A stretch of DNA of 64,000 nucleotides from a virus. The position numbers and the translations under genes were made by a program. The notes beneath the pieces are model-generated. The model saw only the letters and a list, made by a program, of their open reading frames with translations. It made no database searches and had not been told where the DNA came from. Below, piece by piece: positions 11,301-48,500 of this stretch (its first letter is position 1; each line of letters opens with the position of its first letter). Location of the stretch: the UHGV virus genome UHGV-1451962; one strand, written 5' to 3'.

Positions 11301-13932
11301 AGTAGTAAGAAAATATAATGCTTTAGGTTCTAAGACCGCGCAGGAATCTTTTAAAGATACTCTTGATGCTGCAAAGAAAACACTTGATTTAAGAAAAGAA
11401 ATTCTAGAGCAGTATGAAAATGATCAAAAGCAAAGAGTTGAACTTTTAGAAAATATTGCTGAAGAGGCTAGAAAGAAATTTAATGAAAAATTAAGTAGTA
11501 TTAATGCTGTTATAGAAGTTAAATTAAAGATTAAAGATTTTAAAGATACTAATAGAGAAATAGGTAAAAATGTTGTTGAAGCTTTTGGCGATGCTGTTAA
11601 TTGGGGCAAAAAACCTGGACAAATTGATTTCTTTGGTATGCAAGATAACTTAGCTAAAGCTAAAGACTTAGAAGAACATATGAATCAAATATTTAATCTT
11701 ATGTCTGAGTCTGAAGATAGTGCTGATTTTGAAAGTGTTATAGATTCTTTAGAAGATTTACATGGTAATATTGCTGATACTGTTTCTGATTTAAAAGATT
11801 GGTTAGAAAATCTTAGAGAGTATTTAACTGATGTTATTGATGCAGCAGCTGACAGATTTGCACAATTTACTGATCAATTAGACCATAATGGTACTGTATT
11901 AGATTCAGTAAAAGAATTATTAGATTTACAAGGAATAACTTATAAAACTGGTAAGAATTTTGAACTTTTACAGAAAACTATTCAAGGAAGATTGGAAACA
12001 GCTACTTCTACTGCCAAATTACAAAAGCAATGGATGGAAAAAGCTGCGGAACAATTAGCGGAAGCAGAAAAAGCTTTGGCAGGAGTTACTGAAGAAGATG
12101 CAGCTTATGATACTCTTAAAAATAATCGTGATGCTTTATTAAAACAATTTAATGAATCTCAAGAAGCTATGTTAGATGCAGCTAAAGAAGCTATGGAAAC
12201 GGCAAGAGAGTATTATACTAATGCTATTGAGAAAGCTGCTTATGATTTTGAGCAAGCTATTAGTGGCGGAATGGGTTTAGAATTATTGCAGCAAAAATAT
12301 GATAATTTAATTAGTAAAGAAGAAAGATATTTAGATAAAGTTAATGAAACATATGAAGTAAGTAAATGGAATAGACAACTTCAAAAAGCAATAGATGAAG
12401 AAACTAATGAAGCTTCTAAGAATAGATTAAAAACATTACAAAAAGAAATTGAAGTAAGACGTGAAGGTAATAAATTATCTAAATATGATTTGGATATTTT
12501 AGAAGCAAAATATCAAATGACTCTTGCTCAAAATGCTTTGGATGAAGCTCAAAATGCTAAAAATTCAGTGCGGTTAGTCCGCAATGAATCCGGCAACTGG
12601 GATTATCAATTTACAGCTGATCAGTCTAAAATTGATGAAGCTACACAAAAGTATGAAGATGCGGCAAATAACTATTACAATATAGCAAAAGACCAAGTTA
12701 AAAATATGATGGATGAAATTCTGCGATTAAAACAAGATACTTTAGACCAAATTAAAGATGTTTATGAAGATGAAAGTTTAACTGAGGAAGAACGTGGAGA
12801 AAAGATTGCAGAAATTCGTAGAAATGCAAATGATAAAATCCTTTATATTCAGCAAGAATATCAAGTATCTTTAGAAGATATGACAGATGCAGGTGGAGAG
12901 ATAATTACAGAATATGGAAATACTTATAATGATGTAATGAAAATTATGGAAATGGGTACTTCTGACTTTACTGCATATTTTGAAACTGCTCTTGATGAAA
13001 TGGAAAATGCTGCTGATAATTACAATAGCACTATGGAAGAAGTCACTGGGACTACTGGTTCAAATGTAGATGCTTTAAAACAAATTATTGATGATACTAC
13101 CAAATCTACTCAAGATTTAACTACTGCGGGTACTCAAGCCGCAGATGCTGTTTGGAAGAAAATTGAAGAAGTTCGCCAAGCTTCAGAGCAATGGTCTAAT
13201 TATGCAGCGTGTGTACGTCAAGCATTAGATACTTTGTATGAAATGTCTAACTTTGTAACTACTAGAACAGTTGCCGCTTCTGTTGGTGATATGAAAGGGT
13301 ATAATTCTAATATTGACTATTCTTCTGTTATGAATGATTATTTAAGCCAAGGTGGACAAGTTGGAGATGAAATATTTAAGAGTTTAGAATATCAAAGATA
13401 TTTGAAAATTCTTGGAGAAAATTTTGAACAAGGTAAACAGTATATTTATTCTAATGAAGATTATTATAATAAGCAAAATGATCCAGAGTTTCAGAAATGG
13501 CTAAAAGATAATGGCGGAACTGGCAAATATGAGGATTTTGTTAAGAGTCATACAATAGGTTACGCAACAGGAGGCTATACTGGTTCTTTTGATAATGAAG
13601 ATGGTAAATTAGCATTTTTACATGAGAAAGAATTAGTTTTAAATCAAGAGGATACTGAAAATATTCTTTCTGCGGTTTCCGCGGTTAGAACATTAGGGCC
13701 TAATTTGTTTAAACAAATAGAAAGAATTTTGGATAATAATATAATGGCAGGGCAAAATTTATTAAATGCTCGTATGGCTAGTTCTACTACTGTTTCTAGT
13801 GATGGGCAAATAGTTGAACAGATAGTGCATATTCAAGCTGATTTCCCTGGTGTATCCAGTGCAGCAGAAATCGAAGCAGCTCTTAATAATATTGTTAATG
13901 ATGCGGCTCAATATGCTAGTATTAGAAAATAA
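5317..13932 (+). CDS. tail tape-measure protein (2871 aa)
   Basis: Giant ORF. The N-terminal third shows the TP901-type tape-measure core pattern (..TTDYTDAALIYYQQGL.., ..GTALKTIFARIQGL..). There is a central hydrophobic stretch (..FMALSKSMGALVSVYTG..GITIGVLALFAAGIVFAVKII..) and long E/K/Q-rich helical segments. It lies between the chaperone-like gene and the distal tail genes. Confidence 0.9.
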   Translation: MAKRLNYEVGFTGDTSQLKASLNDAVKALQKLGTSSTTQMTQGMREASKSALELANNLKTATNQETGKLDLVTFNRNLANSKMTISDYAKQLSQLGPTGQQAFMKVAQAVTSAELPMRRTNKVLDELWTTMKNTARWQLTSSALHGFMGALNTCVGYSKALDKSLNSIRIVTEQSAEQMADFAVQANSAAKNLSTTTTDYTDAALIYYQQGLNDKEVLDRTDITIKMANAANESAQVVSDQLTAVWNNFYDGSQSLEHYADAMVALGAATASSSDEIAGGLEKFASIADMIGLSFDYAASALATITATTRQSEDVVGTALKTIFARIQGLNLGETLEDGTDLNKYSEALSKVGVSIKDSNGDLRNMDAILDDIGAKWGTLTKDQQVALAQTVAGVRQYNQLVSLMDNWDFFEDNLKIAQNSEGELNKQADIYAESWEAARKRVKAAAEDIYDSILNPESIVAIDDVLTPFLSGIAQVVNALGGLKGIALVVGSVLTSVYSGKLVNGLQNFATNIQIMTGLQGKLTRSLQEQTVTEAENLDIIIGGNRALETEISLMREKVQLQGMINKYTKNYDQSQMLQVNQRVGVIDALRQQIMASAQKQTALLGEAEEFKTTILLDIEPKPGWEERFRQKILQFNTNMVNGPLKNLNSVFLFDEKDDITRTTEKVTASMQKLASQASSIEAVRRAYSNLNIDQKESAVVLQELIQKTGLWKAEMQNWSTPKLQEFLNNLGTQSIEASKGMQLLKQALMELSYSPEAIDQFINSIRRLAAEEHSAAEYTRLINEEIKKFTNSLQTGSIQSESGWAKTVVSMSNHLMNFGMTLSAVSNMGKVFKESMEGNITAGEAFIQIMTNLGMILMSGSSLFMALSKSMGALVSVYTGVNTSVAALTFVTKLNTAAEEGNIAAKIANVAITKLLTVSEGSLAAAMGITIGVLALFAAGIVFAVKIIDGLIVTQKEASQAIADATQNYTDQKSKLDELNSSLEQTRQKIEELESKDSLSLVEQDELANLKQQEASLERQADLRERIVKAKQAEMAYAIADNFDKKYDKTYKVEPKGRTGADTSNFKTQEDLDKWYNSLNSDQQAKALDQYQNWTQQIAEATAQMTSEVGEDLAELEQDYANYLGAVDSGAIVADPSKIADMQDKLAELRKLIYPTDNQYYEMVIRPVLDDESFDEVRDKIFRALSSGDIKGAGLALTDEMRSAIEAAGISVDDLFNQIAERMSQARETIKSEMGGTEEQLNKLTAEDWDIILTLDLENIGSFRELMKAIENAKNTDLKVKVDTSELDAAKDKIESLNTNEEPLEKALMSYKEQGYLTMDQTYELIKANEEYAQYIKKVGDEYVLTTQSLTDFTEMEKAEKLALDQAIEAMQNKGKVDRDYAQQYVDLYSSLIESSKNWSDQERADSGENFDKNTEALRRQAQAFQEGKISASEYFDAINQRVSETGDNFAKLSDGIDGLKESDYAKTMISSTTALADGFKDLISEVEAGGTNMQEYYAGAVKGTKALMNITAKSNKYITKTADGYKVVTDNIDDATKATQDYKDAQKKVQNLNTWEKQVDQAEGFKKAIDDITSYYDYLKNYLNDNNWLELPDNFDTTTTKFKNMCDTMAADIWSLKDTNAEAFSAIMAHMETENAGFDSSLITSQSQLASAMQGNATIASSAINGLAAQSQISIGTLCQIGGQLLQSLASAISSFSYTIQATGVVDNPGGIGLGGGLVDKIGALLTTGGKIPFEWDMPSAHIDLTGSGSGGSPMFSTTGSARAQKVNGSGKSNYIRSKDTGAASKGESSGLLENISKFGTALEEYGKQSVLSQGLKAFAPSGGGTGGRTLNPSGISTDNNRPSGGGGGKGKGGKGKGGGGKGKGGKGKGGGGGSGSDDSPEIEDEEIFDDRYHDINNRLEEQSQLLDKIDTAKDRAFGVKKLEKYKEKIEAINKEQELYKEKLKKTEEYLKEDLTDLQKNFSGVKLNIDSDSKALLNYEDLEKWAIEEYNKVVRKYNALGSKTAQESFKDTLDAAKKTLDLRKEILEQYENDQKQRVELLENIAEEARKKFNEKLSSINAVIEVKLKIKDFKDTNREIGKNVVEAFGDAVNWGKKPGQIDFFGMQDNLAKAKDLEEHMNQIFNLMSESEDSADFESVIDSLEDLHGNIADTVSDLKDWLENLREYLTDVIDAAADRFAQFTDQLDHNGTVLDSVKELLDLQGITYKTGKNFELLQKTIQGRLETATSTAKLQKQWMEKAAEQLAEAEKALAGVTEEDAAYDTLKNNRDALLKQFNESQEAMLDAAKEAMETAREYYTNAIEKAAYDFEQAISGGMGLELLQQKYDNLISKEERYLDKVNETYEVSKWNRQLQKAIDEETNEASKNRLKTLQKEIEVRREGNKLSKYDLDILEAKYQMTLAQNALDEAQNAKNSVRLVRNESGNWDYQFTADQSKIDEATQKYEDAANNYYNIAKDQVKNMMDEILRLKQDTLDQIKDVYEDESLTEEERGEKIAEIRRNANDKILYIQQEYQVSLEDMTDAGGEIITEYGNTYNDVMKIMEMGTSDFTAYFETALDEMENAADNYNSTMEEVTGTTGSNVDALKQIIDDTTKSTQDLTTAGTQAADAVWKKIEEVRQASEQWSNYAACVRQALDTLYEMSNFVTTRTVAASVGDMKGYNSNIDYSSVMNDYLSQGGQVGDEIFKSLEYQRYLKILGENFEQGKQYIYSNEDYYNKQNDPEFQKWLKDNGGTGKYEDFVKSHTIGYATGGYTGSFDNEDGKLAFLHEKELVLNQEDTENILSAVSAVRTLGPNLFKQIERILDNNIMAGQNLLNARMASSTTVSSDGQIVEQIVHIQADFPGVSSAAEIEAALNNIVNDAAQYASIRK
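10858..10956 (+). repeat. Gly/Lys low-complexity tandem repeat inside the tape measure
   Basis: Encodes GGGGGKGKGGKGKGGGGKGKGGKGKGGGGGSGS, which is two imperfect 36-nt units (GGGGKGKGGKGK). It is followed by an acidic run (DDSPEIEDEEIFDD). Confidence 0.9.
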
Positions 13933-26964: not shown

Positions 26965-27402
26965 TTATATAATATGATAATAAGGTTTTTCTTCATCAAA
27001 GATTTTCCATCTAAGAAAATCATCTAAAATAATTCCTATTAGACCTAGAATAAACCAAAGACAACTAAAAGATAAACATATTTGTCCTTTATAATTAAAA
27101 GGTAAATGTGAATAATCCCAAATATTAAGTTGTAATTGAATGTTTAAAATATATCCAAATAAAAATTCTAAACTTGTTATAATTGCGGTTCCAATTAATC
27201 CTTGAGCCAATAAAGACCAATTCCAAGGAATATTTTCATTTAAGCTACCTAAAATTAAAAAAGATAAACCGCCTAAGATAAACATTGACCAATGAGTATT
27301 TCCTGAATGTATATATGTTTTGTAAACAAATTCAATTAACCAGTAAATACTTCCGCCAATCAAAAATAATATAGAATTTCTAAAAAAAGAATTAATTTTC
27401 AT
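26965..27402 (-). CDS. polytopic membrane protein (about 4 TM helices), last gene of the DGR-side operon
   Basis: 145 aa with four long hydrophobic stretches: SILFLIGGSIYWLIEFVY, WSMFILGGLSFLILGSL, LLAQGLIGTAIITSLEFLFGYIL and ICLSFSCLWFILGLIGIIL. Its start overlaps the end of the upstream gene by 11 nt. Confidence 0.6.
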   Translation of the reverse strand: MKINSFFRNSILFLIGGSIYWLIEFVYKTYIHSGNTHWSMFILGGLSFLILGSLNENIPWNWSLLAQGLIGTAIITSLEFLFGYILNIQLQLNIWDYSHLPFNYKGQICLSFSCLWFILGLIGIILDDFLRWKIFDEEKPYYHII

Positions 27403-28051
27403 ATTTTAATTCTATGGCTTTAATTTCCTTATAATTTTTAGCAGTATAAATTTGTGTTTTATATTGTTGCATTTTTTTATAATAAGGATAAACAAAATCA
27501 GAAATAGCTAAAGCTAAAGCAGTCAAATTTTCAACTGTCCAAGATGTACATTCTTCTTGGCGAGCATGCCATTCTAATCTAGGATTCTCTGCTCCAGCCT
27601 GAACTGCCATAGAATATTGATTCATATTTAGGCTAATTTCTGATTGATCTTCTTCTGTAACTCCATATTGCTTTCCATCAATCCAAGTCAAAGGATTATT
27701 AATGAGGAAATTAGCGAAAGCTTTTTTATTTTCTTCTTGTTTCATTTTTTGATATTCTTCTAAAGAATAGTAATATGTTAATTCATTTTTTTCATTATCA
27801 TATTTATAAAAATTAGGTTCATAATCTTCTGGAATATTACCATCAAAAGATAAGATTCTTACTGCATCAATAGAACCTGTCATATCTGAATTAGCCAAAA
27901 TGAAATGGCTATTGCAATCTGAGCCTATTACTCCTGTAGCTTCACCTTCCGAGCAAGCAATGACAATACTTGGGTTGGATTGTAATTTGATGTAGCGGAT
28001 TTCCGCAAGGATATCGACTACTATATTTTCTCTATTGATTAATAAATACAT
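27392..28051 (-). CDS. hypothetical protein; C-terminus resembles DUF4376-type phage (fibre-associated) domains
   Basis: 219 aa. Its ATG overlaps the RT stop (TAATG). The C-terminal ..TWIDGKQYGVTEEDQSEISLNMNQYS..WTVENLTALALAISDFVYPYYKKMQQYKTQIYTAKNYKEIKAIEL pattern recalls DUF4376 (from memory). Confidence 0.4.
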   Translation of the reverse strand: MYLLINRENIVVDILAEIRYIKLQSNPSIVIACSEGEATGVIGSDCNSHFILANSDMTGSIDAVRILSFDGNIPEDYEPNFYKYDNEKNELTYYYSLEEYQKMKQEENKKAFANFLINNPLTWIDGKQYGVTEEDQSEISLNMNQYSMAVQAGAENPRLEWHARQEECTSWTVENLTALALAISDFVYPYYKKMQQYKTQIYTAKNYKEIKAIELKYEN

Positions 28052-29307
28052 TATAATATTTCAACTCCTTTAAATAATGAATGGAAATAATTATCAAGAT
28101 TTTGTATAATATAAAAAGTAGTACCTTTATTTATATGTTCTCTAAAACCTCGATATGATTCTTGAATTTCTATATCAGTTATTTTACCTTGTAGCCAAAG
28201 TTGGTGCATTTTTCTCATTTTTCTATATTGTCGCTTTATTTTCTTTTTAAATGGAGTTTGAATAATTTTATTCGTATTAGTTAAATAAAAATCCCATTTT
28301 AAATATTTAAATGGATTATGTTTATCCGAACGTCTTTTATGAGGATAATTATTTTTATCTAGTTTTATTGGACTAATTTTAATTATTTTAGTTTTTCTTT
28401 TGTTACATTTTAAATGTATTTTATTTAATTCATTTTCAATTTTATTAAGACATTCTTTTAAATAATCTTTGTCATTATGCAAAATATAAATATCGTCCAT
28501 ATAACGTCCATAATATTTTAAATGCAAATGCTCTTTTGCATAATGGTCAATTCCATTTAATGCCAATAAAGCTAATAATTGAGATGCTTGACTACCTAAA
28601 CCTAAACTTTTATGATTAAATTCATAATAAGTACAATTTTTATAAAATTGTTTAGGATAAATTATCTTATATTTTTGTTTTTTGATGATATAGTATTGTT
28701 TATTAGGAATAGGAACTGTATCTTTTGTGACTGAAAAACAAAAGGTATCAATAATATAATCAATTAATTTAAATACTCGTTTTTCTTTAATATAATGTTT
28801 TGCCATTTGCTTTAAAGAATTATGGTCTATTGAATCAAAAAATTTTTGAATATCAATTCTTAAACCATAAAAAGATTTTCCTAAACCATATGTTCTGTGC
28901 GCTGCTTGTAAATGTTTACGCACTTCTAGCAAAGCAAAATCAATTCCTTTTCCTTTTAATGTAGCACAATTATCATAAATAAATTTTGGAGTTAGTTCTG
29001 GAATAAGAACTTGCGAACATAATGTATTTTGTGCCAATCTGTCATAAATATGGCACGCTCTTATATCTCTGGGTTTGCCCCGCTCAATTATACTAAAACT
29101 GTTAAAAACTAATTGTTCATAACTGTCATTTTCTAATTGTTCTTTAAGCGTTAAGATGTTATTTAATCTATTTTCTTCAAAATTAACTGTACTATCTTTC
29201 CATCTTACGTTTCGGCAAATAGAATAAGAAGAATCATAAAAAGCGTCAAAATTACAAAAACGCTGGAAAAGATTTTCTTCTATAAAAAATTCTCCTTTTT
29301 TTATCAT
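28051..29307 (-). CDS. DGR-type reverse transcriptase
   Basis: 418 aa with the YMDD catalytic box (..YGRYMDDIYILHND..) and the SLGLGSQASQLL segment matching the G-x-x-x-S-Q signature of DGR RTs. RT motifs 1-2 are present (..ERGKPRDIRACHIYDRLAQ..). It lies 282 nt downstream of a TR that matches a VR. Confidence 0.9.
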   Translation of the reverse strand: MIKKGEFFIEENLFQRFCNFDAFYDSSYSICRNVRWKDSTVNFEENRLNNILTLKEQLENDSYEQLVFNSFSIIERGKPRDIRACHIYDRLAQNTLCSQVLIPELTPKFIYDNCATLKGKGIDFALLEVRKHLQAAHRTYGLGKSFYGLRIDIQKFFDSIDHNSLKQMAKHYIKEKRVFKLIDYIIDTFCFSVTKDTVPIPNKQYYIIKKQKYKIIYPKQFYKNCTYYEFNHKSLGLGSQASQLLALLALNGIDHYAKEHLHLKYYGRYMDDIYILHNDKDYLKECLNKIENELNKIHLKCNKRKTKIIKISPIKLDKNNYPHKRRSDKHNPFKYLKWDFYLTNTNKIIQTPFKKKIKRQYRKMRKMHQLWLQGKITDIEIQESYRGFREHINKGTTFYIIQNLDNYFHSLFKGVEIL

Positions 29308-29589
29308 GCGGTGCTAGATTGTGTGCTCTGACACGCACATCCGCAATCTTAATTAATTATCTGTATAGATAAAAGGTTAAATTCTCCTTAAATGAAAGCT
29401 ATCTATTATAATCTAAGTCTTTTATTTAATATTTCCTCTCCTTCTTGGTTTTAAAACCAATGCGTCCAGAAAATACCAAAATAGATGAGTTATAACATAG
29501 GTTATAATTTTCTGGGGTAACACTTAGTCGTCTCAGTCGATGTCGCCTGCGGCTCCATCACCAGAGACAGTTAGAGTTCTCATCTAATC
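29308..29589 (-). ncRNA. TR-RT spacer; probable structured part of the DGR RNA
   Basis: No ORF. It contains a GC-rich segment next to the TR with GTCTC(29530-34)/GAGAC(29564-68) and GATG/CATC pairings. It also contains nested stems CCAGAAAAT(29466-74)/ATTTTCTGG(29507-15) and TTATAAC(29490-96)/GTTATAA(29501-07), a 16-nt perfect palindrome at 29445-60, and a GC-rich element (29308-29345) abutting the RT ATG. Confidence 0.5.
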
Positions 29590-29693
29590 GGGCGCGAGGT
29601 AATTGTTGTTGTTGTAGTTGGTATTGTTCGCATTACCATCAGAGTTGACATTGCACACATTGTTCGTGTTGTTCGAGTTGTAGTAGCGAGACC
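29590..29693 (-). repeat. DGR template repeat (TR)
   Basis: 104-nt match to 30388..30491 with 83 identities. On the coding (-) strand it reads as about 15 AAY codons (..TAC AAC TCG AAC AAC ACG AAC AAT GTG TGC AAT GTC AAC..). It is non-coding and lies between the Avd-like ORF and the RT. Confidence 0.9.
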
Positions 29694-29726
29694 CGCGATA
29701 TTTTAGAATTTAACCAAATAAAAAAA

Positions 29727-30191
29727 TTATTTGTATCGCTGAGAATAAATTAGATTATCTCTATTTATTCTATCAAGAAGATTTTGTTTTAATTTGTAAG
29801 TAAGTTTAGCAACATATTTGAAAGATTTATTTTTCTTTTTATTATTTAACCCATATTCATAAATACATAAATCTAATTGCCTTAAAATTGAATCACAATA
29901 TCTTATTGATTTATTAAAGTAATCTGCTCTTTCAACTAAAGTTTTTTTATTTTTTAGATTGATTAAACTAGCAGAGAAAGCATATCCATGTGCGTTTTTG
30001 GCACATTTTAAAATATCTGCACCAAAAGCTGAATAATAGTATGGATTACCAAGAATACCTGGTTTAATATGAGAACCATCATCTAATTCTTGATATGGAC
30101 GAACTAAAATTAATACTTGATGGACTAACTTTCTTGCATCATTTAAATAATCATTTTTAGATTGATGCCTATCTTTTTTTCTTACTGACAA
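29727..30191 (-). CDS. avd: Avd-like DGR accessory protein (by position, size and basic helical composition)
   Basis: 154-aa K/R-rich ORF with a TTG start 7 nt after AAAGGAGG. It occupies the canonical slot between target gene and TR. No sequence motif verified. Confidence 0.5.
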   Translation of the reverse strand: MSVRKKDRHQSKNDYLNDARKLVHQVLILVRPYQELDDGSHIKPGILGNPYYYSAFGADILKCAKNAHGYAFSASLINLKNKKTLVERADYFNKSIRYCDSILRQLDLCIYEYGLNNKKKNKSFKYVAKLTYKLKQNLLDRINRDNLIYSQRYK

Positions 30192-30225
30192 ATTAAAAAC
30201 CTCCTTTAAATAACGTACAAGAAAT

Positions 30226-30254
30226 ATTATACCAGAAAATTTTTAAAAAGTCAA
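30226..30254 (-). promoter_or_regulatory. consensus promoter for avd-TR-RT
   Basis: On the - strand: TTGACT (30254-30249), a 17-nt spacer ending in TGG, then TATAAT (30231-30226), about 35 nt upstream of the avd start. Confidence 0.65.
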
Positions 30255-30315
30255 AGAAAAAAAATTTTTAGAAAAAATTTTTTTCCCAGAAAAGGTGAAA
30301 GCATTTTTATACTAT

Positions 30316-30341
30316 GGCATTGGCCCTTTTGGGCCAATGCC
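30316..30341. promoter_or_regulatory. perfect GC-rich hairpin/cruciform just 3' of the VR
   Basis: GGCATTGGCCC (30316-30326), TTTT loop, GGGCCAATGCC (30331-30341). It lies 29 nt beyond the target stop codon. No U-tract follows on either strand. Confidence 0.6.
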
Positions 30342-30369
30342 AATATAACCTTACTGTATAACTTTACAG

Positions 30370-32133
30370 TTATCCAATAACGAAAGCGGGCGCGAGGTAA
30401 CGGTAGTTGGCGTAGTAGGTAAAGTCCGCACCACCATCAGAGTCGACACGGCACACATAGCCCGTGTAGTCCGAGTAGTAGTTGCGAGACCGCTCCCAAT
30501 ACCATTTGGAATCTCCTGAACTGTTACCATTAGCATCTTGAATGTTTTTTATACGGGAGCTGTCACTTGTGTAATAATCATAAGCAGCATTATATCCTTT
30601 AGTACATTCTGCATTGGAAACAGTAGAATTAGCAGTGCTGATTGGAGAATAACTATCTAATCCCATTTCTCTCTCAGAAGGAATCCAAACAGTTTCGTTA
30701 TTATAACTAACATTAGCACTTCTATTATCATCCCAATTATCGCAAGTACCTTTAGATACTGTTTTTATAGATGCTTTAGCAGCACAAGCATTATAAAAAT
30801 TTTGACAATAACTTCTAGCATTAGAACCAATCCATTGTGCGCTATTATCACCAAAAGTAGTCATATTCGGCAAGAGATAAACACTATGAAAAGCTAAAGT
30901 TTTATCTCCATCTTTGTCATAGCCAATACAACGCATTGTAACAGCATTTGCTCCTAAAACATTAGTAGATAAATTCATCTTTTTAGTTTTACCAACTAAA
31001 GCTTGACGTTCTGAAGCAGAAGAATTGTTAAGCCAAGACTTTAAGCCAGCCCACCAAGAAGCATCTCCCGCAGCACTCTCATTTCCCCAAGTCCAATATG
31101 TAGCAGTAGCAGTAATTTTTTTATTCGCGGGAGTTGTATAATTGGTACTGGCTGCTATTGATACAGTAATAGTAGCAGTTCCCGCGGTTGTACCATTGCC
31201 TTTAATGGTAATTGTTTTACCGCTTACTGTTGCTGAAGCCACATTAGAATTAGTAGAAGTTACAGAAATTGTACCAGTAGAATTAGTGGTCACAGTAACT
31301 TTTACACCAGTAGAATAATTAGATGCGTCAATAGAAACAGTAGAAGTGCTTAGACTTAATGTTCCTGTTGCTTTTTGAATAGACCAATCAACATTTTTCG
31401 CGGTTGTTGTCTTATCAGGCCATCTGTAATTATTTTTAGGAGTAAAAGTAGCTGTATATTTTCCTGCATTAATTCCCGATGTAGTTCCTCCAATAGTCAT
31501 GTAACTTGTATTATAATTTGACCAATTTGGACTTTGCGAATTGGCGTTATAAGTTAAAGTTCCAGTTTGAGAAGGAATAGGAACTGTTTTTCTTTCTACT
31601 GTTACAGAAAAAGTAGTAGTTTTAGTAATACTATTTTCTGTATAAGAAACAGTAATTGTTTGAGTACCAACTGTATTTAAAACAGAAGGTGAAGTTGTCC
31701 AACCAGAAACAGTAGCGGTTTTACCATCAGAATAAGTGGCAGTAACAGACATTCCGGCAGATTCAAATGTCTCGCCATATTCATAAATTGTCTTAGTTGG
31801 TTTTGTGCTTGTGATGCTGGTTAGTGCATGGATAACAGTAACTGCTTGCTCGGCGGTACAAGTAACTCCTCCTTCAGAGTAAGTAATAGTAACTTTAGTT
31901 ACTCCATCAGTTAAAGGAGAAGGTGTTACAGTATATCCAGTTACCGCAGTAGAAGAAACAACAATATTATCAATGGCATAATTGGCAGTTATAACCATTC
32001 CTGTTGTTTCAAATTCTTGTCCAGCAACGTAAGATGTACGGTTTGGTGGAGTAGTAACTTCAATAGAGTGGAGTGCTATTGAGCTTCCGCCACCTTTTCC
32101 GCCTTGTTCAGTTAAAATGCATTTAACAGGCAA
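30370..32133 (-). CDS. DGR target protein: Ig-like repeats plus a C-terminal lectin-fold-like variable domain (putative receptor-binding or fibre protein)
   Basis: The track ORF 30370..32154 begins inside its own SD (TTG ATA AGG AGG). The more likely start is the TTG at 32133, 9 nt after GGAGG. There are repeated ~90-aa segments (..VTGYTVTPSPLTDGVTKVTITYSEGGVTCTAEQAVTV.. / ..VSGWTTSPSVLNTVGTQTITVSYTENSITKTTTFSVTV..). The C-terminus ..WYWERSRNYYSDYTGYVCRVDSDGGADFTYYANYRYLAPAFVIG is the VR. Confidence 0.85.
   Translation of the reverse strand: MPVKCILTEQGGKGGGSSIALHSIEVTTPPNRTSYVAGQEFETTGMVITANYAIDNIVVSSTAVTGYTVTPSPLTDGVTKVTITYSEGGVTCTAEQAVTVIHALTSITSTKPTKTIYEYGETFESAGMSVTATYSDGKTATVSGWTTSPSVLNTVGTQTITVSYTENSITKTTTFSVTVERKTVPIPSQTGTLTYNANSQSPNWSNYNTSYMTIGGTTSGINAGKYTATFTPKNNYRWPDKTTTAKNVDWSIQKATGTLSLSTSTVSIDASNYSTGVKVTVTTNSTGTISVTSTNSNVASATVSGKTITIKGNGTTAGTATITVSIAASTNYTTPANKKITATATYWTWGNESAAGDASWWAGLKSWLNNSSASERQALVGKTKKMNLSTNVLGANAVTMRCIGYDKDGDKTLAFHSVYLLPNMTTFGDNSAQWIGSNARSYCQNFYNACAAKASIKTVSKGTCDNWDDNRSANVSYNNETVWIPSEREMGLDSYSPISTANSTVSNAECTKGYNAAYDYYTSDSSRIKNIQDANGNSSGDSKWYWERSRNYYSDYTGYVCRVDSDGGADFTYYANYRYLAPAFVIG
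30388..30491 (-). repeat. DGR variable repeat (VR), encoding the last ~35 codons of the target protein
   Basis: Pairs with the TR. There are 21 differences; 20 are at positions where the TR coding strand has A, and 14 of 15 TR AAY codons differ. The shared GC-rich 3' end CCTCGCGCCCG is IMH-like. Confidence 0.9.
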
Positions 32134-32383: not shown

Positions 32384-32395
32384 AGGTGTACTTTT
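32384..32395. repeat. right arm of the 12-bp inverted repeat (AAGGTGTACTTT)
   Basis: Perfect reverse complement of 32200..32211. Confidence 0.9.
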
Positions 32396-32424
32396 TAAAC
32401 TTATATTTTGAAAGGAGTTTTTAA

Positions 32425-34170
32425 ATGGCTGTTCAATGTGTACTTGTCGGAAAAGGCAAGGATGATGTATTTACTGCTGTTTATGGCGAAACTACATTTG
32501 ATAAAGTGTTAAAAGCTTATAATGAAAATAAAGTAGTTCAAGTGATTTATCAAAATCGTATTTATTATTTAGATAATACTACTGTTGTAGATTCTCCTGA
32601 AGCATTTTCTTTTATTTCTGCTTTTAGTAATCAAAATGATGAAGCTGGTGAAATAAAGCATTATGTAATAAGTTTAATGACAGGAGATAGTTGGTCTGGG
32701 CCTTTCTTACAGAAATCTACTCCAGCAACTCACGCGAATACTCATAGTAAAAATGGTGATGATCCACTTACCCCCGCAGATATTGGAGCTATGGAATTAT
32801 CAGAAAATGTTCTTAAACAATCAAATGAAGATATTACTTCTCAAGTAGCGCAAGCTTTATTTGGGGATTTAGTTCCTTTTAGCGGTGGAACCATGACTGG
32901 TTTGTTAAATGTTCTTACTCCTGTTAGAGATAGTAATGCTACTACTAAAAAGTATGTAGATGATGCTTTGAGTGAGAAAATTGGAATGGATGGCATTGGC
33001 GATTTGCATGTATGGAAGAAGACTATAATAACAAAACAGGAGATTCCAGCAAGTTTTACTTTAGGTGATGTACACTCTGGTTCGTTTCGTTTTGTTAGTG
33101 GTGAAACTAATGTGTTGTTAGTAGGTACTCCTAAAGTTAATGAGAGTGGTGTCGTTACCTTAACAAACTCTGCGCAGTATAATTTTAATTATAATTCTTC
33201 ATCTCCTAGTATATCTGATCTGCGAGGACAGTATTGCATGTTTACCATGATAGCCGATCAATTTTCTAGTTTTACTGCCAATAAAGTTTTTTATATACCC
33301 ACTGATGCAAACTATATTTCTTTATCAAGTTCTAAAAATATTACTAAATATCAAGATGTTAATGGTACACCTAAAATTCCTGCCGAAGTAACTACTACCT
33401 ATCCCGCATCTACTAATCCCAATGCGTATCAAGAGGGGAGCGATGCAAAACCAGCAGGATATGTACTTGGTAATGTGATAACAGGTTCATTTTGTATTGG
33501 TAATACAACAGCACCTACGAGAGCTGCTTATTATGTCGCATCTGATATTTCTGTATCTGATAATGGTGTTTTATCTATTTCAACACAAACAAATATAACT
33601 ATTGGTGGTAATTTTTTTGTATCTAGCCGTGATTTAATTGCTGGTAAATTTATACAAATTTATAATAAAGGGTCTATGTCTTCTGTTTTATCTGAACCAT
33701 TCACAACAGTACCAGGCCCAATTATTTATATTCCGAATGATGTAAACTTAACGTCTGGCGGTGATGGAAATTTAAATTTATATATTGATCGCTACCAACC
33801 TATTACTGGCTACGCTGCTATCCCCGCAGGCACCACTATTGAATATCTGGGGAAGTTGGGAGATAAGACTAGGGTAATAATTGGCTCGTATATTGGGACA
33901 GGGGTCTGCGGGGCAGAGAATCCGACCAAAATAAAAACGAGTTTTTTACCGAAACTTGTAGCAATAAATGGAGTAGGAAATACCGGCAGTACGGGCATTA
34001 TTCTGTTTTTTCGAGATATGAACTATGCGTTCTCAGAAATCGGCTCAAGTACCAACTTTAACTTTACTAATATAACCTGGTTATCAGACGGAGTACATTG
34101 GTATTCTAGCAAAGTCCTTATGCAGGGGAATAAGCAGGGGGCAATTTATAAATACATTGTTATCGGTTAA
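32425..34170 (+). CDS. tail fibre protein (581 aa)
   Basis: SD GAAAGGAGTTTTTAA-ATG. It contains ..THANTHSKNGDDPLTPADIGA.. and ..FSGGTMTGLLNVLTPVRDSNATTKKYVDDAL.., motifs typical of phage tail fibres (from memory). The C-terminal ~125 aa have a distinct, GC-richer composition. Confidence 0.7.
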   Translation: MAVQCVLVGKGKDDVFTAVYGETTFDKVLKAYNENKVVQVIYQNRIYYLDNTTVVDSPEAFSFISAFSNQNDEAGEIKHYVISLMTGDSWSGPFLQKSTPATHANTHSKNGDDPLTPADIGAMELSENVLKQSNEDITSQVAQALFGDLVPFSGGTMTGLLNVLTPVRDSNATTKKYVDDALSEKIGMDGIGDLHVWKKTIITKQEIPASFTLGDVHSGSFRFVSGETNVLLVGTPKVNESGVVTLTNSAQYNFNYNSSSPSISDLRGQYCMFTMIADQFSSFTANKVFYIPTDANYISLSSSKNITKYQDVNGTPKIPAEVTTTYPASTNPNAYQEGSDAKPAGYVLGNVITGSFCIGNTTAPTRAAYYVASDISVSDNGVLSISTQTNITIGGNFFVSSRDLIAGKFIQIYNKGSMSSVLSEPFTTVPGPIIYIPNDVNLTSGGDGNLNLYIDRYQPITGYAAIPAGTTIEYLGKLGDKTRVIIGSYIGTGVCGAENPTKIKTSFLPKLVAINGVGNTGSTGIILFFRDMNYAFSEIGSSTNFNFTNITWLSDGVHWYSSKVLMQGNKQGAIYKYIVIG

Positions 34171-34222
34171 AAAAAGAATTTTAATGTACTACATCAACAA
34201 CCAAAAGGAGGAAATAAATTAA

Positions 34223-34534
34223 ATGTTTTATATTAATTCAATAAAACAAAATAATAATTATGGTAATCCTATGGGTCAATATTTTAAAGACTCAATACAA
34301 TTACCAGATGAATTATTAAACAATTATCTTGAAACAAAAGGATTTTGTAATTTTGAAATTCAAGATAATATTATTACAAAAATAATTGTAAATCAAAATG
34401 ATTTAGATGATTATAATAATAACCATCTAGAGGTTAAACCAGAACCATCAGCAGAGCAAGATATAAATGCAATGTTAGTAGACCAAGAATATAGAATAAC
34501 ATTACTAGAATTAGGTATGAAAGGAGATTCCTAA
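34223..34534 (+). CDS. XkdW-like small fibre-associated protein
   Basis: 103 aa with SD AAAAGGAGGAAATAAATTAA-ATG. The size and the C-terminal ..DINAMLVDQEYRITLLELG.. resemble PBSX XkdW-type proteins that follow fibre genes (from memory). Confidence 0.35.
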   Translation: MFYINSIKQNNNYGNPMGQYFKDSIQLPDELLNNYLETKGFCNFEIQDNIITKIIVNQNDLDDYNNNHLEVKPEPSAEQDINAMLVDQEYRITLLELGMKGDS

Positions 34535-34668
34535 TGTTATATAGAGTTTTAAAAAGAATGATTGAAGCAGGTCAAACAGAAGGCCTGCAAGAAAAAATAG
34601 ATATTTTCTTTGCGGCTGGCCGCATTACCGCAGACCAATACACTGAACTCACTAAATTATTATCATAA
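34534..34668 (+). CDS. XkdX-like small protein (44 aa; absent from the ORF track)
   Basis: The ATG overlaps the previous stop (TAATG). My translation is MLYRVLKRMIEAGQTEGLQEKIDIFFAAGRITADQYTELTKLLS. The ..G.IT..QY.ELT.. pattern and the position after the fibre and XkdW-like genes match XkdX-family proteins (from memory). Confidence 0.45.
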   Translation: MLYRVLKRMIEAGQTEGLQEKIDIFFAAGRITADQYTELTKLLS

Positions 34669-34689
34669 TTCCCAAAATTTTTGGGAATT
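34667..34689 (+). terminator. hairpin at the end of the fibre operon, just upstream of the recombinase gene
   Basis: AATTCCCAAAA (34667-34677), T, TTTTGGGAATT (34679-34689): perfect 11-bp arms. The stem is AT-rich and the U-tract is weak (TTTAG), so it could equally be an operator. Confidence 0.35.
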
Positions 34690-34730
34690 TTAGATTAATC
34701 GTCTACTAATAATTTTCTTATATAGTAGAG

Positions 34731-35357
34731 GTGAAAAAGGTGTTATATGGTTATGCAAGAGTTTCTTCCCGCGACCAAAATATAGATAGACAAATAATTG
34801 CATTAAAAGAGGTCGGCGTAGAAGAAGAAAATATCTTCATAGATAAACAATCAGGTAAAGATTTTAATAGACCTTCTTATCAAGAATTATTAGAAACAAT
34901 TAAAACAGGAGATATGGTAATTATAAAATCCATAGATAGATTAGGTCGAAATTATTCAGAAATTTTAGAACAGTGGAGAATTATTACTAAAGTTCTGAAT
35001 GTAGATATTAAAGTTATTGATATGCCGTTACTCGATACCTCCTACGGGGATGGTACATTAAATAACTTTATAGCTGATTTAGTTTTACAAATTCTCTCTT
35101 TTCAGGCAGAACAAGAGAGAATTTGTATTAAACAGCGACAAGCAGAAGGAATAGCTGCTGCAAAACAAAAAGGAGTTAAATTTGGCCGACCCCGCAAACA
35201 GCTTCCTTCTAATTTTGAAGATTTATATTATAGATATTTAAATAATGAACCAGTGGATAGATTATCAAAAGATTGTAAAGGATTATCTAAATCTACTTTG
35301 CGGTTGCGACTACAAGAACGTCATTCTAAAGATAAAGCATTGGGTGTAATTATTTAA
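34731..35357 (+). CDS. small serine recombinase (resolvase/invertase family)
   Basis: 208 aa with a GTG start after SD GAGGTGAAAAAG. The N-terminal catalytic region is VLYGYARVSSRDQNIDRQ...DRLGRN, and there is a C-terminal HTH-like region after ..GVKFGRPRK... The size and layout match the Hin/Gin/resolvase type, not a large serine integrase. Confidence 0.85.
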   Translation: MKKVLYGYARVSSRDQNIDRQIIALKEVGVEEENIFIDKQSGKDFNRPSYQELLETIKTGDMVIIKSIDRLGRNYSEILEQWRIITKVLNVDIKVIDMPLLDTSYGDGTLNNFIADLVLQILSFQAEQERICIKQRQAEGIAAAKQKGVKFGRPRKQLPSNFEDLYYRYLNNEPVDRLSKDCKGLSKSTLRLRLQERHSKDKALGVII

Positions 35358-45035: not shown

Positions 45036-45596
45036 TTAAAAGATTTGTCCAGCAATACGTTGCACGCTAGTTGTAAAATCTTTTCTAGTTAAATTTTTTA
45101 AAACTTCACAATTAAATTCTGAAACAAAACTTCTAAAATCTTTTTCATCTGTCTCATATCTACGGATAATTTCTTCAATATTAGGTTCTTTTTCTCTATT
45201 GAGTTGTCTTATCAATCTCTCCTTATTTGATACATCTATATAAAAAATCTTTAAAATAATATTTGGATTATCTTTCAAAATTTCTAAACCTTCTGGATTA
45301 AAAACCCCAATATTAATTTTATCTGTATCAAGAGTAGAATAAGAAGTTCCATAACACCACCCGTTAAATGAAGTAGCTTCTAGCATGTCTCCATTTAAAA
45401 GTTTAACCGCAAATTCTTCATTGGTAAGATAATGATAATCTTTTCCTTCTGTTTCATTATCTCTTTTAGGTCTAGTAGTACAAGAAATAATTGGATTTAA
45501 TTGCGGATTAAGCTTAATGGCGGAGGAAAGAATAGAATCTTTCCCCGCACCACTTTTTCCTGCAATTGCAATAATTTTAATCTTCTTCATCTTCAA
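45036..45596 (-). CDS. guanylate-kinase-like (d)NMP kinase
   Basis: P-loop AIAGKSGAGKDS and ..SCTTRPKRDNETEGKDYHYLTNEEF.. (guanylate kinase signature region). Confidence 0.7.
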   Translation of the reverse strand: MKMKKIKIIAIAGKSGAGKDSILSSAIKLNPQLNPIISCTTRPKRDNETEGKDYHYLTNEEFAVKLLNGDMLEATSFNGWCYGTSYSTLDTDKINIGVFNPEGLEILKDNPNIILKIFYIDVSNKERLIRQLNREKEPNIEEIIRRYETDEKDFRSFVSEFNCEVLKNLTRKDFTTSVQRIAGQIF

Positions 45597-48500
45597 TATC
45601 TCCCTGAAGTCTTGTATGTCTTAAAATTAAATCTCCATGTTCATCAATATTATCAATATGATATAATCGATGAGAAATACTAGAAGCATATTTTTTACTA
45701 ACAAATTCGTCCCCCCGACGAATACCCTGAATTAAAATCATATTACCTCTATTAAACCAACTCTTTTCAATCACTTTCTTAGTTCCATCTGATTGACGTT
45801 CAGAAATTTGTTTATCAAAAACAGCGAAATGTTCCTTTCTTAACTTTACTGGTACTACTCCAGTAGTAGTTAAAAGATAAACAATTCCTTTTGGTTTATT
45901 TTTTGCAATACAAGTTCCGCAAATTTTATGCAGTTTATAAATAGGAATTTGAATAGCACCTTTTTTGAAAAACTTTTCTACTTCTGGTTCAGCAGGTAAT
46001 TGCTCAAAATCAACAATACCATATTTGTTCTTATTAACATTAATCAATTCATGCGGATGATAATAAAAACATAAAGCTTCCATTTCCCAAGAAGATAAAT
46101 TACCAGAAGCATATTTTTCCCAATCTTTCATAAAAATACTTGTATTTAACTTATTTAAAATATTTTGTTTATCTTGATTAATCCAATTTCTAAAAACATC
46201 CATCCAAGTTTGATAAATGTTTTTATCCCAAATTTTCTTATTTAAGAAATAATTATTTTCAATCCAATGTCCATAATCCATTTCATAAATAAAATTTAAA
46301 GCTCTTTCATCAAGTTTATAATATTCATTGTCATATTTACATTCATTTTTTAAATATCTGTTAAATTCATAAATTTTTCTTGCGGTTATTTGTTCTTCTG
46401 TTTCTTCTGGCAAAATTTTATGTCTAATTAATCCTGGAAGATTCTGTAAAGTTAATCTTGATTTTTTATCACAAGTAAGCCACAAATAAGTAATCATTGT
46501 GTCATATCTAGGAGACAAATTATCAAAAGCACCGCCTTTAATCAAAGTAATCATTGCTTGTTTATTAGGTCTAACTCGATTGTAAAAATCTATCATAGAA
46601 TTATAAGGACGTTTAGCAATAATATCTTTAATTAAATCATCTCCGACATTAAGCAAACTTTTTAAACCCATCCAAATTAAATTCTGTTTTTCATCAGGAA
46701 CAAAATTATATTGTGAATTATTAATATCTACAAGAGAAATTTTAATATTTGCTTTTTGCATTTTTCCTAAAGCAGTAGCAATTTTGTTATAATCAGTGCT
46801 TCCATCTTCTCCACCTGCATCATTAATAAGACAAGCGCAATTCCAATAAACAATAGGAAATTTAAAAGCTAAATTCATTTCTTGAACAGCAATGATAGAA
46901 TAGGCAAGCGTATGAGATAGATTAAATCCATATCCTCGACTAGTTGCAATTAACACATTCCAAACATAATTACAAAGATTTTGACTTAAACTTTTTTCTT
47001 TTACTTCTGTAAAATACTTTTTAGTAAGTTCATCATATGCAGCAGGATTTTTCTTTGCAATAGCTTTTCGCAAACTATCAGCAAAAGTCAAATCAAAACC
47101 ACCGCACTCTGGAATTTGAACTAATTGCATAAATCCTTCCTGACTCTCACATATACCATAACTACCAGAAAGATATGGTTTAAGTAATTCTTGCTCTTGT
47201 TGAGTTAATCCATAGTTTTCCATTTCTTGATACCACAAATTAATATTTGCTTTAAAGCGAGCATATTTATTTAAAGGTTGTTCTCCACCTTTTTCCTGAG
47301 CCATTAATCGAATAATTGAATTTAAGTGGGCTAAATCTTCAACTGATTTAGGGTGAGTTAATGCAATGCCTTGTATTCCACTTTGTTTTTCCATTTGGAA
47401 TAAAGATTGAATTTCATGGTTATTAACCATTTTCCACATTTCAGAATCATTGCGTTCAATATTATATACACCTAAAATTTCTTCATAAGTTTCTCTTAAA
47501 GAACCTTTATCTTGAATTTTATTTGCTGCAAGTAAAAGATCGAGACAATTATGCATTTTATCCATAGCTTCAACGGATAATAGATCATACTTGATAAGAC
47601 TTACATCTTCAGCCCGATGTAGATCATAACCTGTTACTATTGTTCCATCAGGAGCACGCATTAAAGAAGCGGACTCAGTAAAAGGTTCATCCACAAAAAT
47701 AACTCCGCCTGCATGAATACCAGAACGACAAATCAAACCTTCAATTTTATGAGCTACATCCCACAATTCAGGATATTCTTTCATTTTATCAACAAAAGGT
47801 CTAATGATAGGATAACCATTTTCTTTATCACCATAATAACATTGAGATAAAGTGCGAATTAATCCTCTATCTGCGGGAATAAGAGACGCAATATATTGAG
47901 CTTCATCTACATCAATACCTAAACCTCTACAAGCTGTTAAAATAGCACTTTTAGAAGTTTCTTTACCAAAAGTGATAACATTTGCAACTCTATCTTCACC
48001 ATAAACTTCTCTTAGGTGAGAAAGAACTTGCGCTCTTTTAGATCCTTCAATATCTACATCTACATCCAAAACAGAAACTCGACTAGGGTTAAGAAATCTC
48101 CAACTAAAAGTTTGAACAGTTTCTCGCAAAGGATTAATTTGCGTTATATCTAAAAGATATAACAAAATAAAACCAACACCTGAACCACGACCTGGGCCAA
48201 CTAAACTGCCAGCCTCCCAACAGCAATCAATAATTTTTTGAAGATTTAAATAATAAGCACTCCAATGAGTTTTATTTACTATTGATGATTCCCAAGTTTT
48301 ATCCAAACAATCATTAATTGCTTCATAAGTCTTTTGATTTCTTAAAGTTTCATCTTTTTCTAATCGTTCAATAATAGCTTTAGCCAATTCTACATCACCA
48401 ATATAATCAGATTCAATAAATTCCTTCAAAAGAGGAATATCATTTACCCAATCATATAAATTACTTTTTGGATTAAAAATTTTCCAAGGCAATTGTGGAA

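Follow-up and report, generated by a model that had tools for sequence, protein, structure and literature searches.

Evidence for a complete diversity-generating retroelement in the virus genome UHGV-1451962

Results

The locus and its repeat pair

We analysed a stretch of 64,000 nt (64 kb) from the virus genome UHGV-1451962, here called the window, for a putative diversity-generating retroelement (DGR); all coordinates refer to this window. The locus consists of a target gene that ends in a variable repeat (VR), a small accessory gene, a template repeat (TR) and a gene for a reverse transcriptase (RT) (Table 1). The coding strand of both repeats is the minus strand, and TR sits in a 419-nt gap separating the accessory gene from the RT gene. 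An earlier note on this DNA, made from its letters alone, had interpreted the repeat pair as the outcome of mutagenic retrohoming. Our analysis supports this interpretation, since all the components that define a DGR adjoin the pair.

Table 1. Features of the putative DGR locus. Positions are those of the 64-kb window; the strains are described in the text.
Feature	Position	Strand	Description
Target gene of the DGR	30370..32133	-	587 aa from TTG at 32133; mechanical open reading frame (ORF) to 32154 (587-594 aa)
VR	30387..30491	-	codons 548-582 of the 587-aa target gene; 5 codons before the stop
GC-rich block at the VR 3′ end, resembling an initiation of mutagenic homing (IMH) element	30396-30387	-	CTCGCGCCCG
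Hairpin	30315..30342		perfect 12-bp stem (8 G-C pairs), 4-nt loop; 44 nt past VR, 27 nt past the stop
Promoter-like site	30226..30254	-	TTGACT-17-TGnTATAAT; upstream of the accessory gene
Accessory gene, Avd-like	29727..30191	-	154 aa, TTG start 8 nt past AAGGAGG, pI 9.8
TR	29589..29693	-	non-coding, 37 adenines, 15 AAY codons (Y, C or T) in the VR frame; identical in 8/11 strains
TR-RT spacer	29308..29588	-	280 nt, predicted to form the structured 3′ part of the DGR RNA
A-tract	29296..29302	-	between ATG (29307-29305) and Shine-Dalgarno (SD) sequence GGAG (29295-29292) of RT
Reverse transcriptase of the DGR	28051..29307	-	418 aa from ATG 29307; 410 aa if ATA 29283-29281

A repeat finder returned a direct repeat of 108 nt with 80% identity at 29586-29693 and 30384-30491. 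The scripted ungapped comparison of these two copies on the minus strand showed 22 mismatches, 21 of which are at an A of TR, in a repeat whose A content is 38 out of 108 nt (hypergeometric p = 4e-11 for mismatches at A). For the shorter stretch that had previously been aligned by hand (29590-29693 against 30388-30491, 104 nt), the program gave 21 differences with 20 at TR adenines, which is exactly the count made by eye. The ungapped pairing proposed at that time is thus right, but the 3′ end is not, as the repeat reaches 1 nt further. Position 29588 is A in TR and a fixed C in all the strains examined, so it lies just outside VR, and the repeat proper spans 29589-29693 and 30387-30491 (105 nt with 37 TR adenines). 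A scan of the 64-kb window for a second VR, using TR masked at A, recovered the known pair only.

The substitutions from TR to VR comprise ten A>G, seven A>T and four A>C. This mixture indicates an A-to-N pattern and not deamination. Enzymatic editing or deamination of adenines in the VR DNA, in place of mutagenesis directed by a template, would share the adenine specificity of the changes. However, deamination yields A>G only, and A>T together with A>C make up half of the changes, which refutes editing; in addition, variants of TR at bases other than adenine and a TR indel have been copied into VR in other strains (see below), and this needs transfer from a template. We therefore give this explanation almost no weight.

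TR contains 15 AAY codons in the VR frame, and 14 of them are altered in VR, solely at codon positions 1 and 2; our codon table agrees with the one drawn up before. In the VR of the window, 20 out of the 30 AAY adenines have changed, compared with none of the seven adenines of the other A-containing codons (Fisher p 0.002). None of the TR codons can mutate at A into a stop codon. The theoretical repertoire is 15^15 = 4e17 for the 15 AAY codons and 7e21 with all 22 A-containing codons. The figure of about 10^17 given in the earlier note therefore holds for the AAY codons, while it omits the seven other A-containing codons that set the ceiling of 7e21. Across the strains, six out of the seven non-AAY adenines are invariant (those of four TAC codons, ACG and ACC). 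As the non-AAY adenines are nearly invariant, the realistic repertoire is about 1e17-1e18. The six constant adenines, all in non-AAY codons, point to purifying selection on scaffold residues.

The same data bear on the idea of an ordinary diverged duplication (a paralogous repeat) or of gene conversion, with no reverse transcription involved. Such an origin would produce a direct repeat, here one of 80% identity. But plain divergence would hit all four bases and favour third codon positions, whereas only positions 1-2 of AAY codons are affected here, and the adenine-specific mismatches (p 4e-11) refute plain duplication. Moreover, the copy that codes for protein is hypervariable and the non-coding copy invariant, and an RT of DGR type lies 280 nt from the pair. 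We regard this origin as having a negligible chance of being correct.

VR variation halts in all strains at the GC-rich block CTCGCGCCCG, which VR and TR share. Beyond this block, the flank of VR (CTTTCGTTATTGGATAA) and that of TR (ATTAGATGAGAACTCTA) are unrelated, with full divergence. With a GC-rich end of VR and a non-identical counterpart (IMH*) past TR, CTCGCGCCCG is by its sequence a candidate for the IMH role.

Variation among independent strains and in a sister clade

The accessory protein was found at 100% identity on 67 contigs, including a third-party annotation (TPA) record of NCBI named 'Caudoviricetes sp.'. From these loci, which were reached by exact look-up of this protein, we took ten from independent metagenomes (contigs up to 140 kb) and aligned them with the window, giving 11 sequences; the evidence on strains thus comes from independent assemblies. 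Exact pattern scans with A-masked TR/VR sequences against IMG/VR and JGI metagenome contigs gave no match.

In the 11 aligned sequences the flanks vary by 1-3% per column, VR is a local peak of diversity and TR is nearly invariant. The TR of the window is shared exactly by eight of the 11 sequences, which have seven distinct VRs among them: six of the seven other contigs with this TR have a different VR, and the VR of L025 equals that of the window. Polymorphism was seen at 31 out of 37 TR-adenine positions, compared with 2 out of about 70 other positions (Fisher p ~1e-17, from a slightly conservative count). Mismatches between TR and VR at bases other than adenine account for only 8 out of 221 in total, about 1% per site, which is the background rate of single-nucleotide polymorphisms (SNPs). 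The expectation that VR polymorphism would be confined to positions of TR adenines, with TR itself invariant, was thus borne out by the strain assemblies.

In L026 and L030, TR is 6 nt shorter and has a different 5′ end, and the VRs of these two strains show the same 6-nt deletion. L031 has private TR changes outside adenine (AAT ACC to AAC AAC, and AAC AAC to AAT GAC), and these recur in the VR of L031. Since a TR indel and private non-A changes are both mirrored in VR, the transfer is directional, from TR to VR.

The single mismatch off adenine, T in TR and A in VR at 29685/30483, was found only in the window and L025. The other nine strains have different VRs, and all seven of them having the TR 5′ end of the window keep T at this position. 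This exception is a private point change in this VR. The alternative that it represents a mutated TR was rejected, as VR keeps T in those sister strains that share this TR 5′ end. The exception reported earlier for codon 3 is therefore real, but the change belongs to VR and not to TR.

A search with the RT protein led us to a sister clade of 24 IMG/VR contigs (50-148 kb), which encode an RT about 60% identical to that of the window. In about 20 of them, a TR/VR pair occupies the corresponding position and its mismatches are all or almost all at TR adenines, and in about 15 the TR is almost identical while each VR is different. In this clade too, TR is nearly invariant and VR variable at TR adenines, as predicted. 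The boundaries of the repeats are conserved across the two clades: the repeat ends in CTCGCGCC(C/G)G, VR is followed by CTTTCGTnATTGG and TR is followed by ATTAGATG.

The RT genes of the sister phages L001, L002 and L006-L024 (75-148 kb) contain 8-9 in-frame TAG codons (for example, L007:5962-7188). These TAG positions correspond to Gln in other relatives, and the ORFs fragment under the standard code. TAG is apparently translated as Gln in these phages (genetic code 15). The stop codons of the window phage are TAA (42), TGA (6) and TAG (1), indicating that it uses the standard code.

The target gene

An AAGGAGG sequence is located 9 nt upstream of the TTG start of the target gene at 32133. 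The predicted protein begins with a short N-terminal peptide and a Gly-rich linker, followed by immunoglobulin (Ig)-like beta-sandwich repeats and a C-terminal DUF6273 / C-type-lectin-fold domain. Pfam Big_3 was matched at residues 117-186, and further Ig-like repeats were also found. For the C-terminal 239 aa, the match to DUF6273 exceeds the Pfam threshold, and VR falls in the last 40 residues of this domain, at its C-terminal end. The target is therefore a C-type-lectin-fold DGR variable protein of the DUF6273 subgroup, and its C-terminal domain indicates that it uses the canonical DGR scaffold. By analogy, it would serve on the virion in receptor binding or adhesion.

The accessory gene and the promoter-like site

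The accessory gene occupies the avd position between VR and TR. The pI of its product is 9.76, compared with a mean pI of 9.5 reported for Avd proteins (PMC5758913). Profile searches of the protein against Pfam, NCBIfam, PHROGs and PDB (E up to 10) gave no match. Its AlphaFold2 model (pLDDT 92) shows a four-helix bundle with a beta-hairpin insert. Foldseek matched the model best to 2rld and 2gsc, with a TM score of about 0.8 on the target and a weak E value of 0.03; we take these two structures to belong to the 23S-rRNA-IVS family PF05635, of which Avd is a member. The protein is conserved in all relatives. Its position, size and pI likewise fit an Avd. Judging from the predicted structure, it is Avd-like by fold and not by sequence.

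The promoter-like site at 30254-30226 is the best sigma-70-like match in a region of 4.6 kb (11 out of 12 positions, with an extended -10 element) and is conserved in all strains. From its sequence, it is likely to be the start of an avd-TR-spacer-RT transcript. Just 5′ of its -35 element, between 30255 and 30300, alternating poly-A/poly-T tracts vary in length among the strains, and one strain has a 20-nt deletion there. These tracts may modulate the promoter as an UP-element region, or may reflect neutral homopolymer instability.

The spacer RNA and the reverse transcriptase

The spacer between TR and the RT gene has a GC content of 40%, compared with 30% for the window, and its single-sequence fold has a z score of -2.9. 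Directly after TR, GAUUAGAUGAG (29589-29579) pairs with CUCAUCUA (29489-29480), about 100 nt downstream, enclosing a GC-rich hairpin. A second hairpin at about 29308-29345 is located just 5′ of the ribosome-binding site of the RT gene. RNAalifold, applied to six sequences from three lineages, predicted 44 pairs, 14 of them with compensatory changes; coming from few independent lineages, these changes are suggestive of a conserved spacer structure. Searches of the whole window, with Rfam at gathering thresholds (the spacer included) and with a tRNA scan, gave no match. In BPP-1, the structured spacer RNA primes cDNA synthesis. The spacer described here could by analogy have the same role.

The RT was matched by RVT_1 (E 7e-15) and phrog_1423 (E 3e-75), and it contains the motifs LGLGSQASQ, which conforms to [LIV]GxxxSQ, and YMDD. 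Among solved structures, it is closest to PDB 8ub7 (E 4e-13), a 328-aa reverse transcriptase that we take to be Bordetella bRT, and the alignment includes the SQ motif. Scores against models of group II intron, retron and Drt RTs were far under the cut-offs. Having an RT domain, [LIV]GxxxSQ and YxDD, the protein fits by its sequence the DGR clade of RTs. The closest RTs of GenBank phages are those of nd12, Roseburia phage Shimadzu and several Faecalibacterium phages, gut phages whose DGRs have DUF6273 proteins as targets; these RTs are only 25-32% identical.

The A-tract preceding the SD sequence is 7 nt long in the window and 5, 8 or 9 nt in other strains, which are otherwise 97-99% identical. 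As a consequence, 8 out of 11 strains have ATG 29307 in another frame than the RT, although the RT ORF is intact in all 11. The N-terminal segment of the RT is kept in all strains and in the relatives of 60% identity, and aligns to bRT; starting from the first canonical in-frame codon would remove 47 conserved N-terminal residues. An in-frame ATA lies 8 nt past GGAG, and in the sister clade the same SD sequence is followed by an in-frame TTG. Since the ATG is often out of frame while the RT ORF and its N-terminus are intact, the A-tract is probably untranslated, with initiation after the SD sequence, and the RT probably starts at ATA 29283-29281. The A-tract may instead be a site of slippage or phase variation. 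Stop-codon recoding and RT decay were considered as reasons for the variable lengths of the RT gene in sister strains and were rejected; the lengths reflect variation of the A-tract, and the ORF is intact throughout.

Two small genes follow the RT gene at its 3′ side on the same strand (26965-28051, minus), with stops and starts that overlap or abut, and both are conserved in every sister strain. The product of one has 219 aa and matches DUF4376 weakly, and that of the other has 145 aa and matches a CmpB-like membrane protein and phrog_20274.

The hairpin downstream of VR

The region 30290-30400, which contains the hairpin, folds as DNA with a z score of -5.0 against shuffled sequences. The stem is identical in all 11 strains, while the neighbouring intergenic sequence varies. 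The loop (30327-30330, read on the coding strand) is AAAA in seven strains and TTTT in four. Inversion through the palindrome best accounts for such a swap of four bases to their exact complement. Flipping of the loop between AAAA and TTTT is expected if the palindrome extrudes, which suggests that a hairpin or cruciform is formed in vivo. Hairpins of phage DGRs have been reported to have GC-rich stems of 7-10 bp and GRNA loops, at 4-34 bp from VR (Guo et al. 2011, PMC3240598), and homing in BPP-1 depends critically on the sequence of the loop (PMC3240598). We consider the hairpin at 30315-30342 a candidate target-site hairpin or cruciform of the DGR.

It is also possible, though doubtful, that this hairpin is a mere transcription terminator of the target gene or a palindrome related to replication, and plays no part in retrohoming. 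It is located past the stop codon, its distance and loop are unlike those of the published DGR hairpins, and its place is taken in the sister clade by another hairpin, which is AT-rich. On the other hand, no T-run follows the hairpin on either strand and a terminator scan made no call. GC-rich hairpins with 4-nt loops 3′ of VR are a recurrent DGR feature (PMC3240598), and the stem is perfectly conserved in the 11 strains in the midst of varying intergenic sequence.

A more speculative idea, which we think unlikely to hold, is that the activity of the DGR is gated at the level of the population by two fast switches, the length of the RT A-tract and the inversion of the hairpin loop. If it were true, strains would toggle between diversifying and frozen states. 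To our knowledge, no built-in phase-variation control of a DGR has been described.

The host phage and the neighbouring genes

PHROG matches identified a plus-strand block that contains a tape-measure protein of 2871 aa (5317-13932) and other tail and virion genes, and the DGR sits at the end of this tail-gene block. The replication block on the minus strand encodes a PolIII-alpha-like polymerase, Dda-like and DnaB-like helicases, a primase, RecJ, a ligase, a topoisomerase II and an anaerobic NrdD. The polymerase (45577-49416, minus) shares 39% of its residues, along its whole length, with YorL of Bacillus phage SPbeta and relatives. The related contigs are 134-140 kb long, the GC content of the window is 30%, and its ribosome-binding sites are strong (AGGAGG). 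These features together indicate an SPbeta-like siphovirus of an anaerobic low-GC Firmicute. We infer that the DGR is carried by a distant SPbeta-like phage of about 137 kb that infects anaerobic gut Firmicutes, and that the DNA is of gut origin. A megablast search of the 8.5-kb cassette against GenBank phages gave no match, and the only NCBI deposit is the TPA record mentioned above, whose proteins are annotated as hypothetical.

Beside the target gene lies a plus-strand gene (32425-34170) that encodes 581 aa and has a weak match to a virion-structural PHROG. Its first ~200 codons are several-fold more variable than the flanks across sister strains. Past about 33030, no similarity between the strains can be detected at the DNA level, and the length of the product ranges from 581 to 625 aa. 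This gene looks like a mosaic tail-fibre gene whose C-terminal modules have been swapped, and recombination would then add to the DGR as a second source of diversity. Two genes away from it, a serine recombinase / DNA invertase is encoded at 34731-35357 (plus; phrog_125, E 8e-51). We looked for inverted-repeat crossover sites around the recombinase gene and found none that were convincing. In L031, a 2.9-kb deletion (32395-35293) takes out the mosaic gene together with an ORF of 103 aa and the greater part of the invertase gene.

Discussion

The adenine-specific mismatches, the TR and VR parts, the RT of DGR type and the strain data all support the reading of this locus as a DGR. We put the probability at about 95% that it is a complete DGR in the arrangement target-avd-TR-RT of Bordetella phage BPP-1, with all parts on the minus strand, and the element has been recently active.

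Several points weigh against this conclusion. One mismatch between TR and VR is off adenine; it is private to the strain and fits the background SNP rate of about 1%. The start codon of the RT is uncertain. The accessory protein has no counterpart in the profile databases, and its structural matches have a weak E value. The hairpin is 44 nt from VR, compared with the published 4-34 bp, and its AAAA/TTTT loop is unlike the GRNA consensus. Finally, the population evidence concerns the lineage and not the individual genome, nor diversification within a sample or on a laboratory time scale.

It could also be that a real DGR, inherited as such, has been switched off or has decayed in this genome, so that VR is the frozen product of past homing. 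The odd context of the RT ATG and the adjoining A-tract of variable length would fit this, as would the hairpin loop, which differs among strains and whose sequence matters in BPP-1, and the exact identity of the VR of L025 with that of the window. However, L025 may represent the very phage of the window, recovered from the same sample or from a related one, and the RT ORF, the catalytic motifs, the accessory gene, TR, the IMH-like block, the promoter-like site and the hairpin are all intact. In addition, the other near-identical strains all have different VRs on the same TR, and hence VR turnover is faster than the background divergence of 1-3%. We consider an inactive element improbable and retain the reading of a recently active DGR.

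In the mechanism that we propose for such an active DGR, a transcript from the promoter-like site at 30254-30226 would carry the accessory gene, TR and the structured spacer. The RT and the basic Avd-like protein, acting as a complex by analogy with known DGRs, would copy TR into cDNA and place random bases opposite the template adenines. The cDNA would then replace VR at the 3′ end of the target gene, with the block CTCGCGCCCG setting the 3′ limit, and the downstream hairpin would probably raise the efficiency of homing, as can be supposed by the same analogy. In this way, about 15-16 codons would be rewritten on the ligand-binding face of the C-type-lectin-fold (DUF6273) domain, which would be displayed on the Ig-like repeats. 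The outcome would be about 1e17 or more variants, never with a stop codon.

DGRs of this arrangement have been classified as architecture B (Wu et al. 2018, PMC5758913). The prototype is the DGR of BPP-1 (mtd-avd-TR-brt), and both the order and the orientation of its genes are the same as here. In both elements, the target ends in VR and is followed by an accessory gene for a small basic protein, a TR that does not code for protein, a spacer and the RT gene; both also show A-to-N changes concentrated in AAY codons and a GC-rich, IMH-like VR end with a flank unlike that of TR. They also have in common a GC-rich hairpin with a 4-nt loop 3′ of VR and a variable domain of C-type-lectin fold, and bRT is the best relative of the RT with a solved structure. 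There are also differences. The match of the RT to bRT is weak, in two aligned stretches that cover about half of the protein. The accessory protein described here is not recognisable as Avd by sequence and has a beta-hairpin insert, and the target is an Ig-repeat and DUF6273 protein and not an Mtd trimer. The hairpin is longer (12 bp), lies further from VR (44 nt) and has a non-GRNA loop. Lastly, BPP-1 is a Bordetella podovirus of 42 kb, and the phage described here is SPbeta-like, low in GC and about 137 kb in size.

Previous studies have described DGRs that target DUF6273 proteins in phages of gut Firmicutes, namely the Faecalibacterium phages Lelie, Roos, Pioen, Toutatis and Mushu, and the 'tentaclins' of nd4 and nd12 (PMC11792537, PMC10743442, bioRxiv 10.1101/2024.10.15.618418). 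The DGR of the window resembles them in having VR at the C-terminus of a DUF6273 / C-lectin domain, in its Ig-like domains and in its gut habitat. Those phages are temperate and have genomes of 30-55 kb, while this phage is SPbeta-like and about 137 kb in size; only one target was found in its 64-kb window. In tentaclins, an N-terminal lectin domain precedes the Ig domains (Baykov et al. 2023, PMC10743442). The target described here is made of the same building blocks in reversed order, with the Ig-like repeats first and the lectin domain at the C-terminus, and is therefore not a tentaclin in the strict sense. TvpA of Treponema denticola and Lcl of Legionella (DUF1566-type) differ in being chromosomal bacterial lipoproteins that have no detectable sequence similarity to this target and different N-terminal parts.

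Gut-phage DGRs that target DUF6273 proteins are by now well described, and the present example changes nothing in the understanding of DGRs. Its practical value lies in annotation and in offering a candidate system for questions about the hairpin and the start site of the RT; only the A-tract, the flipping of the loop and the cryptic Avd might repay further work. It is a natural example of a DGR with all parts present, a visible directional flow of sequence and population data ready at hand. The accessory protein would represent a divergent Avd-like family, in loci of which DGR finders based on sequence would score no accessory gene. For the phages themselves, the finding extends the DGRs with DUF6273 / C-lectin targets to what we infer to be very large SPbeta-like gut phages and to their apparently TAG-recoded relatives.

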